A stretch of 64,000 bases of DNA, from assembly GCF_050320075.1 (NCBI RefSeq), contig NZ_CP190018.1; one strand, written 5' to 3'. Positions 42,001 to 48,000 of the stretch are shown one piece after another. The position numbers are program-made. This DNA comes from Escherichia coli (GTDB taxonomy: Bacteria; Pseudomonadota; Gammaproteobacteria; Enterobacterales; Enterobacteriaceae). Within the stretch, counting starts at the first letter, position 1; each line of letters starts with the position of its first letter.

Positions 42001-45000
42001 TTCAAAGTGAAGACGTAAAGCTTCAGTGATCCAGGTCCGGTGTTTCATACGATAGTGTCCATTAAAAATGATGGACATTATTTTTGTAGAGCCGGAGGAA
42101 ACAGACCAGACGGTTTAAATGAGCCGGTTACGTTGTATTCGCCCATGAACCCCAGCAAATCATGGTAATAAAACACATTATTATGGCGACAGCATACGAT
42201 TCCACGATAAACATAAATAACTCCTTGTGGTAGTTATAATCAATCGTTGTGGACAGAGGGAATAGCAGCCATTCTGCGAATGGCTGTCATATGTTATTAA
42301 TTAAAATAAAGCTGTAATTACGCTTTCAAACCATACGTTTTGAATTTTTCAAGGACGATGGTCATTTCGGCTTCAGACAGCACGGGAACATCGTGATGTA
42401 ATCCGCCACATTTGATGTATAAATCAGCCAGCGTCTCGGTTTCACCCGCCAGCCACAACGTCTTTTCCAGCGTGACGTCCATGGCCAGCATACCGTGGTG
42501 CTGCATCAGCAAGGACTTACTTTCTCTGATTCCTTTAGATACACCGTCGGCCAGTTCAGGACTGCCAAAGGTATAATAGGGAATACAGGGAATATGATCC
42601 GTCCCCGATACCGCCACCATATAATGAATGGCCGGAATTGAATGATTATGTATTGCCACCGCCGTGGAATTCACCGCATGCGTATGTATGACAGCATTCA
42701 ATTCTGGTCTGGCTTTATAACACGCCAGATGAAATAACCATTCACTTGATGGTATTTTACCCGCTTCAGGTATTCCCTTATCGTCTACAAAGACAATCAT
42801 GTCCGGCGTCATCTTTGAATAAGCGATCCCACTCGGCGTAATCAACATGCCACCGGTATACCTGGCACTCACATTACCTGATGTTCCTTGATTAAGACCT
42901 GACGCATTCATTTCCCGACAAGTGGAAATGATTTTTTCTGCTAACTTAATCCGTTCCATTCCTGATCCTTAATAGCAATGGCCGCCGTTTTAATGCTGTT
43001 CCCCCTGGAGTGCTTTACTCTTCAGGTCAGCAAACATATCCGCCAGCGCTGACTTACTGGCAGCACAGACTCCCCGCTCAGTAATGAAGCCGGTAATGTA
43101 TCGGGCAGGCGTGACGTCGAAAGCGTAGTTCCCACAACGGGTTCCTTCAGGGGCGGTATTGACCCAGCTCAATTCTCCCTGAGGGTTTATCCCATAGACA
43201 TGGGACTGCTCTTTTCCGTCACGTTGCTCAATCGGAATGCTTTTTCCGTCCTCGATAGTCCAGTCAATAGTGGGAGAAGGTAACGCGACGTAGAAGGGAA
43301 CATGGTTATCATGGGCCGCCAGCGCCTTAAGATAGGTACCAATTTTATTACAGACATCCCCTCTGGCCGTGGTTCGATCGGTCCCAACAATGCAGAGATC
43401 AACGTCACCGTGTTGCATCAGGTGGCCACCCGCGTTGTCGGCGATCAGGGTGTGAGGAATACCGTGTGAGCCCAGTTCAAATGCCGTGAGTCCGCCCTGA
43501 TTACGTGGCCGCGTTTCATCCACCCAGACGTGAACAGGGATTCCGTTTTCATGCGCTTTGTAGATGGGAGAAAGCGCGGTTCCCCAGTCTACAGTCGCCA
43601 GCCAGCCTGCGTTACAATGTGTCAGGATATTGACCACACTCCCGGCCGGTTTTTTCTGGGCTATTTCGCGGATGACTTCTGTACCATGTAATCCAATTTG
43701 TTCACACAACGCGACATCTTCCTCGGCAATTTCTGCCGCCAGCGCCCAGGCCACATCCTTGCGCTCTGATACACAGAGATCCTTCAGTGTGTCTATCATC
43801 CTGTCGAGGGCCCATTTGAGATTAATTGCCGTTGGTCGGGTTTTGATAAGAAGGTCATAGTAACGCTGCAGACCCATGTCACTGGCATCGTGATTCATTC
43901 CCAGCGCGATGCCATAGGCTGCAACGACACCAATAAGCGGAGCGCCACGAACCCACATCTCCTGAATAGCCGTAGCGGCCATTTCCGCAGAGGTAAGCGC
44001 CACCACCTCGAACTTAAAAGGCAACTTAGTCTGATCGATGATTTCTACCGCTTTTCCATCCCCGGAAACCCAGACCGTACGATAGTGTTTACCTTTAATA
44101 TTCATAATGACCTCTTACTTAACCTTCGCAGACTGGATGACGGAATCCATATTTTTAAACTGGCGGGCATTGACGATAAGATCGCGCGCCATGGTCAATG
44201 CACGTCGTTCACATCCTGCGCGAAGCTCTGTATTTTCAATCTGTTTCAGCTCGGCAACGCCAGCAAAACCAATGATCCGGCGATTCATTTCCATGCCGGC
44301 ATTCACCAGGGAATCTTCAAGCAGCGTGGCAAAAAACTGATCCTGTGCGTCCTCAAGAGCGGCCCTGTTCTGTTGATACATTTCTGTCGGCCACGCGTCG
44401 CCCTGTGTTTTGTTGTCCCAGAGCTGGCGGAACTCCCGGGTGAAAACGGACCAGGTTTGGACAATCTGCTGAAGCAGCCATTCCTGATAGTCAGCGCGAC
44501 GTTGCTCATTCGCATCCCACCCAGGGCGTGAGAAGTACGCCAGCAGGAGGTTGCCAATATAGTTGCCGATATCAAACGCCATTGGCCCCATGAAACCGAA
44601 CTCCGGATCAATCACTTTGGTATCCGTGTCGGTCACCATGATTGAGCCTGAATGAAGGTCGCCATGTAACAATGCCTGCGCTTCTGTCATAAATTTGTAC
44701 TTATAACGCATGGCAACCTGGATCATCTCTACATCAGCCCAGGCCTTATGGACGGCATCGTCCAGCTCAGGAGAAGTCCAGTTATTCCGTTCAGCGTTGT
44801 AATAGGGCTCTGTGAAGATCAGATCTTCCGTAATTTTGCACAGCTCATGATTCAACGCGAACTCGGCAGTAAGCGCTTTTTTCTGTTCTGCTGACATGCC
44901 AATGTCAGACGTATTGAAGAGAGTCTGTGCTAAAAATCTGCCGATATCTTCAGCTAGTTTAGGGAATTTTTTACCGTTAATCAGTTCCTTACGCAGAATC

Positions 45001-48000
45001 ACGTGAGGAGTCAGATACTCCATGGCAAACAGCGCCATTTCCGGGTCGTAAAAATAGACCTGCGGAATCAGTGTGTGACCCGCGTACTTGGCTTCCTGAC
45101 ATAAGACGTTGTACTCAAAGCCCGCACGGCTCAGAGATAAAGGCCATCCTTCGCCCCCTGCACGAAGCCAGGGCAGAGCTTGTTTTACAATGATGGTTTT
45201 ATGTGTCCCCTCAACGATAAACACCATGTTCAGGTTTCCGTCCCCCACTTCTGAAACTTTCCACTCTTCAGGTAACCCTCCCGGTTCGCATGAAGGGGTC
45301 AGTCTGGACGAGAGATAACCCGGCAGCGTGTCACATGTCAGCGGCTTGTAACCTGATGGAATTGAATCCGTCATAACAGTTCTCCTTGTCTACACAGAAT
45401 GATAATCAACTTGTCATGTGACAACTATACATTATCAAATGTAAAATTATTTGTGACACATGTAGATTTTTTGAACTGTATAATATTAAAAATGATGTCG
45501 TATGGAGTCATGATCTTTACAGGAATCAGCAGAGGAAAACATCTATTATTACCATGTAATTCATGTTGTTATGTCGCAACAATAGTACTGCACGGGGAAT
45601 TATTACGGGCAAACTTAGGCGAAAGGAAGTACTGAAGTGACAGAATAAATCACACTTTTTGTACATATGTACTTTTCTATTGTCTTTTGTTGTGGAAACA
45701 AATAGTGTTTGTCATGCCGATGCTAATAGACAGATAGATTCGAGGGCCAACAGCCCCATCATCATGATGGAGCAACAGAGGTGAGTCTAACGTTTCCGCA
45801 CTTCTTATCGATCGGCACTAACGATCAATATCGATAAACTGATCTATCAAAACGATTATCTTTCTTGCAACCTGCCTGGTTATCCTTCTCTTACATTGCT
45901 CGCAGAAAAGCCCTTTTATTACGGTTAGTTATCTAGCTGAGACTTGCTACGCCCATTTTCCATGTACCCCAAATCACGAGGTCACAAAGGCGCGGAAAGA
46001 TGAAGAGATGTGCACGTTGCAACAAAAAAAGAAGCGTCCTTGAACAGAGGCTCTCACTCGATAAAGAATTCTGCGACGAGTGCTTATTCGATATCGATGA
46101 GGAAATCAGGGAAAGAAGGATTATCACGATCAGACGCCTCAAAGATGACAACGAAAGAAAATCGTAGCTCAATATGAAAAATGGAATCGATGTCAGCGTC
46201 ATTATCCCTGCTTACAACGCCGCTGAAACCAGCGTTAGTTTGGTTACTAAAATCCTCAGTGAACCCCACTTGGCTATTGAACTTATCATTGTCGATGACG
46301 GTTCTACTGATGAAACTGGCAACGTTCTTCGTCAAATCCACGATGATCGGCTCATTCTCATTGAGCAGGCCAATCAAGGTGTCTATGCCGCCCGAAATGC
46401 TGCTCTAGCCTTGCACCAAGGAGAATAGGTTATATTCCTTGATGCGGACGACGATATAGCAGATGGGTTCATAGAAAAAAGATGGCAGGCAGTTAGTACG
46501 TCGCAAGCCGACGTCATGATCTTTAATGGCTGGCATTCCTGTGCTGACCAACATCGAAGAGCGGTTCACAAAAAGCAGCCCTATGGTACGCCTCTGTCAG
46601 GTTATTAATGGATTAGACACTGTGTTACACACCGCGAATGGCCGCATTATCTGTGGCTGCAGATGGTCAGGCCATCCTATGTCAGGCAGCATTCACTGCG
46701 CTTCCAGTCCGGCAGGAGCCATAAAGACATTTTTTAAACGGTTCATCTTGCAGCGAGCAATGGTTGATTCTGTACATTGGATATAAAGGACTATATCTAT
46801 ATCAACAATAAGGCCTCTATCACACATCGGCCGGATTACTACGTTGTTCGTGCTATAAACTATGTTGAAGTGATCGCGAAAATCATCCAAGTAGCGGAAC
46901 AAGAACAAAACAAAAAATAAAGGTATTTTTGTACCGGCATGCGCTGGTAGAGGCACGTCATTTTTTGGGACTCTACCGCAATCGCGTTGGGGATAAATCG
47001 GGCATGAAGGACTGCTTCAAAGCGAACATATTCGCAGCCCATTTATTCAGAGGTATCAGCAGTTTTAGCGATGTGTTTTTCTTTATTAAGCTGCTGGGCA
47101 AGCTATTCTGATAAGTTGTGCGTTGCTACACGACACCAGCGCACAGCTTAATTTCACGCTTTCTGACTAAATTGTTCAGGCCTTTTCTATAGGTGCAAAC
47201 ACAACTCCCCGTACTTTCCTCTTCCAACTCAAAATCATCGCACCTTGCTGACCCAAGAAGGGAGCATACCCTGCACTAGTATCCGCACAGCTAATACTCT
47301 ATTGATACCAACAACGCTTCAGCACAACAAAGTAACTCGATAATCACAACTCAAAGTGAAGATGCCAAAAACTCGTTTGAGAGCAATAAATTCAATAACA
47401 TGAAAAAAATGTATTTTGCATTGAAAATCTTACTTATTGCGCTTGGCTACAATTGCATGCTTGGTAATATAGATTATAAAACACCAGACTAGCTGCCTGG
47501 TAAGTAATGTAATAGCAGAGGAAATATCACGATGGATCTTGTAGATAGTGTCGAAGCAGGTAAGCTGACGATCAGTGAATTGATTGATGCCCTGGCGAAA
47601 GATAAAAATTACTCAGCTTCCAAGTGGGATCAGCGATACCGTGAATTTACGACCTTGCTACAACAAACCTCAACTTTTTCTGAACCTGAAACGGATGGTT
47701 TAGTCAAGAGGCTCTGGTATGAACGCGATAACGGTATTGCCAGTATTCGCCAGGGCGTTCCATCCTTAGCAGAATATCAGCAAAGCCTGCCACTGCTTAG
47801 AGAACTAACTGAACGAATTCGGCAACAGCCGGATGAAGAAACTTACCAATATGTTGGCAATGCACTACAACAAGCTAAAGAAAACGGACTTCTCAAGCGT
47901 ATGTATAGGAGTTTGAGAAATCGCGTCTTTGCCGCGTTCTCGCCAGAAAACTACACCAGTACTGTGGATGAGAATGCTTTTAGTAAAGCAGCAGAATTCC

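Follow-up and report, generated by a model that had tools for sequence, protein, structure and literature searches.

Which pathway is served by a kinase gene, an isomerase gene and an aldolase gene that stand together in an Escherichia coli chromosome, and does it still operate where an insertion sequence (IS) has entered the same operon? These questions are raised by a 64,000-nucleotide stretch of the E. coli contig NZ_CP190018.1 (hereafter the window, meaning that whole stretch), in which the genes mtnK, mtnA and ald2 occupy positions 42318-45374 on the minus strand. An initial annotation of this DNA had read the three genes as a dihydroxyacetone phosphate (DHAP) shunt, and this assignment is borne out here, since the encoded proteins are identical to the shunt enzymes of E. 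coli ATCC 25922, for which a growth phenotype has been published. The DHAP-shunt system is already known and has been experimentally characterized in that strain (Huening et al. 2024, PMC10986504; Huening et al. 2025, PMC12632272); it lets some E. coli grow on the 5'-deoxy-nucleoside waste of S-adenosylmethionine (SAM) chemistry, and its genetics, metabolomics and regulation have been published. We consider it very probable, judging from sequence identity, that the window holds this published operon itself, functional by identity, with its permease gene split by an IS, its enzymes and regulation expected to work and its dedicated uptake lost. The only strain-specific feature is this rare knock-out of the putative permease by an IS66-family element.

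The enzyme genes and their published counterpart

Open reading frames (ORFs) and family models place mtnK, encoding the 5-methylthioribose/5-deoxyribose kinase of the shunt, at 44115-45374 (minus strand, 419 aa) and mtnA, encoding the isomerase for 5-methylthioribose-1-phosphate and 5-deoxyribose-1-phosphate, at 42990-44105 (minus strand, 371 aa). The third gene, ald2, which encodes a class II (FucA-like) aldolase for 5-methylthioribulose-1-phosphate and 5-deoxyribulose-1-phosphate, lies at 42318-42959 (minus strand, 213 aa). The three ORFs are co-oriented, with spacers of 9 bp (mtnK-mtnA) and 30 bp (mtnA-ald2), and their outer limits coincide exactly with those of the leftward operon that had been proposed initially. 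That proposal counted three genes in the operon; the three enzyme genes stand, and the unit has to be extended to four, as a permease gene follows ald2.

Protein families were scored against curated NCBI models with their own cut-offs. MtnK reaches 522 bits with the equivalog model TIGR01767 (cut-off 275), MtnA 410 bits with the equivalog TIGR00512 (cut-off 279) and Ald2 364 bits with the L-fuculose-phosphate aldolase subfamily model NF005984 (cut-off 264). The E-values of these family matches range from 1e-95 to 1e-157, so that they cannot be ascribed to chance. The solved relatives of MtnK in the PDB are methylthioribose kinases and those of MtnA are methylthioribose-1-phosphate isomerases, whereas the closest solved relative of Ald2 is E. 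coli FucA (PDB 1FUA), with 58.5% identity over 212 residues in a gap-free alignment (E=1e-80, 273 bits); the entry 6BTD ("fuculose phosphate aldolase"), presumably the Bacillus thuringiensis aldolase, scores 117 bits. In FucA, residues E73, H92, H94, H155, Y113 and Y209 serve catalysis or metal binding, and all of these residues, the full set checked, are kept in Ald2.

The ATCC 25922 locus was located from the coordinates in Dataset S3 of PMC12632272 and then compared with the window. MtnK, MtnA, Ald2 and the regulator YjhU/MtnR are each 100% identical in amino acid sequence to their ATCC 25922 counterparts, and all 799 of the 799 bases of the leader upstream of mtnK match. Gene order is likewise the same in both strains, with yjhF and yjhU on one side of the operon and, on the other, a family-2 glycosyltransferase (GT2) fragment (WP_000788354), McrBC-like genes and an Eco31I-type restriction-modification (R-M) system. 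Two differences are apparent: the permease gene is intact in ATCC 25922, whereas here it is split by the IS66 element at codons 26-28 and carries the substitution S148I; and the McrB-like gene, intact here, is split by ISEc52 in both ATCC 25922 and Nissle 1917. Since proteins, leader and gene order are identical, the published data on the promoters P1 and P2, on the cAMP receptor protein (CRP) and on MtnR apply to the sequence in the window. No evidence contradicting the identification as a DHAP-shunt operon was found.

The experiments on ATCC 25922 therefore describe the same enzymes. Deletion of mtnK-mtnA-ald2 abolishes growth on 5-deoxyribose and strongly lowers it on 5'-deoxyadenosine (5dAdo) and 5'-methylthioadenosine (MTA), and a plasmid restores both; furthermore, the plasmid pK2, which carries only mtnK-mtnA-ald2, enables K-12 to grow on 5 mM 5-deoxyribose (PMC10986504). 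The sulfur of MTA accumulates as 2-methylthioethanol, with no recycling to methionine (PMC10986504). With 5-deoxyribose, the four operon genes are induced by ~7.5 log2-fold, with equal RNA-seq read depth over all four; transcription starts mainly from P1 (P1 and P2 were both mapped), MtnR (YjhU) acts as a repressor, and cAMP-CRP binds the operon promoter, activates it and is required (PMC12632272). The mutant growth tests and the presence/absence survey that the initial annotation had suggested as checks were thus already in the literature.

In the pathway, shown by experiment in ATCC 25922 and extended to the window on the strength of identical sequences, the core nucleosidase Pfs, encoded elsewhere, would split MTA and 5dAdo into adenine and 5-methylthioribose or 5-deoxyribose, which MtnK would phosphorylate at C1. 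MtnA would then convert the aldose-1-phosphate to the ketose-1-phosphate, and Ald2, as a metal-dependent FucA-like class II aldolase, would cleave this product into DHAP and either 2-methylthioacetaldehyde or acetaldehyde. Because DHAP would enter glycolysis, the 5-deoxy by-products could be used as sources of carbon and energy. Expression would proceed mainly from P1 in the leader under repression by MtnR and activation by cAMP-CRP.

The interrupted permease gene and the control region

In intact loci, such as those of Nissle 1917 and ATCC 25922, the fourth gene of the operon encodes a 334-aa GRP-family permease (Pfam matches Ureide_permease and Sugar_transport), begins 103 bp after ald2 and is convergent with yjhU. 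Here it is found in two parts. A 5' stub remains at 42128-42214 (minus strand), with its ATG at 42214 and 28 codons (MFIVESYAVAIIMCFITMICWGSWANTT) whose stop codon spans the junction with the IS end, and the 3' fragment at 38503-39432 (minus strand) is separated from its own start codon and promoter. The longest ORF left in the 3' part (38503-39360, 285 aa) begins at a TTG codon; the 50 N-terminal residues are missing from it, and these make up hydrophobic segment 1 and half of segment 2. The 103-bp spacer between ald2 and the permease gene (42215-42317, minus strand) contains a hairpin at 42265-42287, which is not followed by a T-run on the operon strand.

The two parts are separated by an intact, ISCro1-like element of the IS66 family (39433-42131, 2,699 bp), which lies on the minus strand and is thus co-oriented with the operon. 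Its ORFs on that strand are tnpA (41401-42078, 225 aa), tnpB (41054-41401, 115 aa) and tnpC (39463-41034, 523 aa), and the RefSeq annotation likewise names it an ISCro1-family IS66-like element. Members of the IS66 family are characterized by the genes tnpA-tnpB-tnpC, by ends beginning with GTAA and by an 8-bp target duplication, and all three traits are present in this element, whose ends read GTAAGCG... and GTAACCG.... The duplicated target, GTTGTATT, is perfect over 8 bp, with its left copy at 39425-39432 and its right copy at 42132-42139 (neither copy being assigned a strand), as judged from the junctions with the uninterrupted Nissle locus, where the alignment with the window stops at 39432 and restarts at 42128. 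Removal of the IS and one copy of the duplication in silico restores a 334-codon permease ORF that differs from the ATCC 25922 gene in S148I alone and places the insertion point at codons 26-28.

A perfect duplication together with intact transposase genes indicates a recent insertion, by which the ancestral permease gene was cleanly split. The initial annotation had described the operon as lying between an IS66 element and a decayed glycosyltransferase gene. Both flanks are indeed present, although the IS66 element is no mere neighbour, as it interrupts a gene of the operon. An intact co-transcribed permease gene, which is a trait of shunt operons, is accordingly lacking here: the stub stays with the operon and the remainder lies 2.7 kb away. 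This split is a lesion within a member of the family and constitutes no argument against membership. Two other traits of shunt operons, an adjacent convergent mtnR and a conserved leader, are found in the window. A 180-bp query spanning the IS66-permease junction recovered the same insertion from just 2 of 5,426 complete E. coli genomes, namely YZLc1-3 (from chicken) and Ec-U3 (from human).

The gene mtnR (yjhU), which encodes the pathway repressor (repressor role from PMC12632272), lies at 37476-38462 on the plus strand, and its product carries a PF04198 sugar-binding domain (residues 64-323, E=1e-79) and a helix-turn-helix (residues 21-56). The best NCBIfam matches are Bacillus-type DeoR and LsrR, both under cut-off. 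Since it has PF04198, YjhU/MtnR is a SorC-type regulator, like Bacillus DeoR, CggR and LsrR, and stands outside the E. coli DeoR/GlpR family. MtnR has been likened to the E. coli family of DeoR, GlpR and FucR (PMC12632272); YjhU belongs elsewhere by its PF04198 domain. Between the convergent mtnR and permease genes, a G+C-rich hairpin (38475-38498, not assigned to a strand) is terminator-like on both strands.

The 799-bp leader and promoter region (45375-46173, minus strand; 39% G+C) ends on the operon strand with ...AGGAGAactgttATG and includes the ribosome-binding site AGGAGA (45381-45386, minus strand), the same as that stated in PMC12632272. Two sigma-70-like hexamer pairs on the minus strand, TTCAAA-18-AATAAT (45475-45446) and GTGTCA-17-GATAAT (45459-45431), overlap the published P1 region. 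The proposed MtnR site is the semi-palindrome CAAAT-N8-ATTTG (CAAATAATTTTACATTTG) at 45436-45453 (read on the minus strand from 45453 to 45436). It is flanked by a 17-nt direct repeat that ends in TGTCACA on the operon strand (45417-45433 and 45452-45468, 35-bp spacing), and the P1 region also holds the inverted repeat TTGTCAcaTGACAA (45411-45424). Both the direct repeat and this inverted repeat are alternative candidate MtnR operators. Further copies of TTGTCAcaTGACAA were also considered as a sign of an MtnR operator and rejected, as its matches are no commoner than chance. No riboswitch or small RNA family in Rfam matched the 799-bp leader, even at permissive thresholds.

Alternative readings and the effect of the insertion

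The three genes could in principle encode the opening steps of complete methionine salvage, with the "aldolase" acting as the dehydratase MtnB and the later genes located elsewhere. MtnK and MtnA are common to universal methionine salvage, MtnB shares the class II aldolase/adducin fold, and weak matches to MtnB models exist; these matches, however, amount to only 64.5 bits with TIGR03328 (cut-off 137.05) and 65.2 bits with NF006672 (cut-off 226), against 364 bits with the FucA-type model, and Ald2 is 58.5% identical to FucA with intact catalytic residues. No dehydratase, enolase-phosphatase or dioxygenase gene (mtnB, mtnC, mtnD) and no transaminase gene of methionine salvage is annotated in the genome stretch covering the window (the whole genome was not scanned), in line with the earlier remark that the full salvage set is missing. 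Moreover, the identical ATCC 25922 proteins yield DHAP and an aldehyde, and the sulfur of MTA ends in 2-methylthioethanol rather than methionine (PMC10986504). A truncated salvage pathway with MtnB, the outcome that would have overturned the initial annotation, is thus ruled out by the model scores, by the residues of the active site and by the published data on metabolites, and its probability is next to nil. It is also extremely improbable that Ald2 is a second L-fuculose-1-phosphate aldolase for 6-deoxy-hexose catabolism, placed only incidentally beside mtnK and mtnA. The RefSeq product name, FucA as the closest solved relative and the conserved FucA active site speak for such a role, but Ald2 scores 318 bits, under the cut-off of 400, with the true fucA equivalog TIGR01086. 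In addition, ald2 shares its transcript with mtnK and mtnA and responds to 5-deoxyribose with ~7.5 log2-fold induction, and neither fucose nor rhamnose induces the operon promoter (PMC12632272); it is likewise growth on 5-deoxyribose that changes on deletion and complementation (PMC10986504). Context, induction pattern and genetics rule this out as the main function, and a side activity on fuculose-1-phosphate is possible.

Two further readings accept the shunt and differ about its state or purpose. The shunt might serve sulfur salvage or the detoxification of SAM by-products rather than carbon catabolism, as such roles are documented for homologous shunts in Rhodospirillum rubrum and B. thuringiensis, and internal 5-deoxy-pentoses could become the main substrates once the permease is lost. 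In ATCC 25922, however, deletion of the shunt leaves sensitivity to MTA, 5dAdo and 5-deoxyribose unchanged and MTA is no significant sulfur source (PMC10986504), and control by CRP groups the operon with carbon-catabolic operons (PMC12632272), which makes this purpose very unlikely. Alternatively, the shunt could be effectively dead in this strain, the IS66 element having removed the only entry route or destabilized the transcript, with a remnant now decaying as in K-12. The permease is clearly disrupted, and erosion of the locus is common, as seen in ~156 genomes with fragments only, in an ISEc52 insertion, in the 58-bp K-12 remnant and in the IS-caused losses reported in PMC12632272. Against this stand the lesion-free enzyme genes, leader and mtnR, which match a functional reference at 100% (proteins) and 799/799 bases (leader), the position of the IS downstream of the enzyme genes, and the growth of permease-less K-12 on 5-deoxyribose with mtnK-mtnA-ald2 alone (PMC10986504); the perfect duplication and intact transposase genes mark the event as recent. 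We thus regard it as unlikely that the operon is dead in this strain.

The reading of the window as the published DHAP-shunt operon, with working enzymes and regulation and a split permease, has several points against it. The original DHAP-shunt enzymology is reportedly that of North et al. 2020, and the in vitro aldolase activity is thereby cited at second hand only. The semi-palindrome as written in PMC12632272, with a 9-nt spacer, has no match in the sequence, where the actual spacer is 8 nt, and the published P1 start ("72 bp upstream") and CRP site ("-35.5") cannot be matched to the base with either the hexamers or the one TCACA half-site. The permease is called putative in the published work (PMC10986504, PMC12632272), and the predicted effect of its loss is uncertain. 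The IS could also alter how the 3' end of the mtnK-mtnA-ald2 transcript is processed or how stable this transcript is, and shunt function in the present strain is deduced from identity with the reference sequence.

As the IS follows the enzyme genes in the direction of transcription and leaves leader and mtnR untouched, regulated expression of the enzymes should persist. Growth of permease-less K-12 with pK2 on 5 mM 5-deoxyribose indicates that cells supplied with millimolar substrate can do without the permease, and 5-deoxyribose at such concentrations should still enter the present strain by other transporters and be used. Use of the substrate at micromolar concentrations in vivo may be impaired; a level of ~100 uM in urine has been cited (PMC12632272). 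More tentatively, the lineage might represent a natural permease-null variant of the shunt, in which the enzymes act only on internal or non-specifically imported 5-deoxy-pentoses, and read-through from P1 into tnpA-tnpB-tnpC may couple the transposase to nutrient state; we hold this combined proposal to be doubtful. Read-through is plausible given the co-orientation of the IS, the absence of a T-run after the spacer hairpin and the even read depth published for the operon. Together with YZLc1-3 and Ec-U3, the strain offers a natural permease knock-out that could be used to find what the permease transports.

Distribution, island setting and related pathways

Distribution was surveyed in the same 5,426 complete E. 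coli genomes, with presence defined as at least 80% coverage of the query. The mtnK-mtnA-ald2 block is present in 1,076 genomes, nearly always at identities of at least 99%, and ~156 further genomes hold only fragments of it. Such fragments include, for example, a 309-bp 3' end of ald2, for which the annotation reads class II aldolase, and a block that breaks off inside mtnA; in at least one further genome, ISEc52 lies within the three-gene block. A query of yjhU plus the 3' part of the permease gene is found in 1,223/5,426 genomes at the same coverage and matches in any part in 1,601/5,426. In ~147 more genomes, yjhU and the permease have been retained than the enzymes have, which suggests that the locus erodes repeatedly from its mtnK side. 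MtnR has been called widespread in E. coli (PMC12632272); the yjhU-permease query matches only the 1,601 genomes just mentioned. Losses of the locus caused by insertion sequences have been noted before (PMC12632272).

The initial annotation had described the operon as absent from K-12, and this holds for MG1655, in which IS1F stands in its place. The 98 bp between IS1F and yjhU (NC_000913.3, 4519240-4519337) match window positions 38463-38560 with one mismatch. K-12 has kept yjhU/mtnR, the hairpin resembling a terminator and 58 bp from the 3' end of the permease gene, which encode ...TMFISYIVGIVLIIAANQ; IS1F and then the fec genes follow. Because the remnant abuts IS1F, K-12 came to lack the shunt through an IS1F-associated deletion or rearrangement, and this sequence scar shows how the operon was lost, leaving yjhU/mtnR in K-12 without its target operon next to it. 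Nissle is listed among the E. coli strains without the DHAP shunt in the introduction of PMC10986504; the RefSeq chromosome of Nissle 1917 (NZ_CP022686.1) carries an intact mtnK-mtnA-ald2-permease cluster, to which window positions 42128-45700 match at 100%. A tblastn search of plasmids with MtnK revealed no genuine plasmid copy of the cluster: two near-identical matches were chromosome-sized records mislabelled as plasmids, and, apart from one E. coli plasmid, the others were distant (<60% identity) and mostly rhizobial. This plasmid (CP088711.1, 156 kb, from a blood isolate) holds a homologue of MtnK that is broken into three pieces and shares only 67% identity with the chromosomal protein, so that mtnK-like genes in E. 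coli seem to have a second, diverged source.

The gene order along the window is uxu, gntP, fim, nan, sgc, yjhIHGF, yjhU, the operon, the GT2 pseudogene, McrBC-like genes, the Eco31I-type R-M system and a CP4-type prophage remnant. A tRNA scan of the window found no tRNA and hence no leuX. In the matching genome YZLc1-3, which is 100% identical to window positions 42000-45700, leuX (tRNA-Leu) and an integrase gene lie ~87 kb beyond mtnK, with island-type genes between. The association with extraintestinal pathogenic E. coli and with the leuX island, which had been named initially, agrees with the published accounts (PMC10986504, PMC12632272), whereas "near leuX" is correct for the island only, leuX being at its far end, ~87 kb from mtnK and outside the window. 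The suggestion of horizontal acquisition fared similarly: patchy distribution and island context carry the case for it, while gene G+C contents of 0.46-0.52, compared with 0.48 for the window, give no compositional sign of foreign origin.

The GT2 pseudogene flanks the operon from outside (46174-46950, plus strand, the end coordinate being approximate). It consists of an 84-aa N-terminal ORF (46174-46428) followed by several in-frame stops, with a DADD motif just past the first of them; the protein annotated in RefSeq is the 84-aa piece alone (WP_000788354.1), which equals the upstream neighbour ORF in ATCC 25922 (PMC12632272). An intact pair of McrB-like (691 aa) and McrC-like (428 aa) genes follows at 47532-50886, and beside it lies an Alw26I/Eco31I/Esp3I-type R-M system of low G+C content (0.31-0.38) with two methyltransferases; this stretch is a small defence island. 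The CP4-type prophage or island remnant at ~56400-64000 includes a CbtA/YeeU toxin-antitoxin pair; also encoded there are an antirestriction protein, a DUF932 protein, a JAB-domain protein and a GTPase. In YZLc1-3, the part of the same island outside the window also harbours dnd/dpt phosphorothioation defence genes close to leuX.

Beyond ATCC 25922, the shunt of R. rubrum and Rhodopseudomonas palustris (MtnP-MtnA-Ald2) is, by the published summaries, alike in its isomerase and aldolase chemistry, which yields DHAP and 2-methylthioacetaldehyde or acetaldehyde. It differs, in a comparison made by description only, in that the single phosphorylase MtnP replaces Pfs and MtnK, and in that it is described as serving sulfur salvage with constitutive low-level expression (PMC12632272). 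The disposal of 5-deoxyribose in B. thuringiensis proceeds through the same kinase, isomerase and class II aldolase steps (PMC10986504), although its reported role is detoxification. Universal methionine salvage (MtnK/MtnP, MtnA, MtnB, MtnC or MtnW/X, MtnD, MtnE) shares the MtnK and MtnA families with the operon; here, however, the third enzyme is an aldolase instead of MtnB, and the published data show no regeneration of methionine. The L-fucose pathway of E. coli (FucI-FucK-FucA) resembles the shunt in the aldolase, FucA and Ald2 sharing 58.5% identity and the same active-site residues, and in its overall course from a deoxy-sugar through a ketose-1-phosphate to DHAP and an aldehyde. The two pathways differ in the order of isomerization and phosphorylation, in their substrates (6-deoxy-hexoses in the fucose pathway, 5-deoxy-pentoses here) and in their regulators, the shunt promoter showing no induction by fucose.

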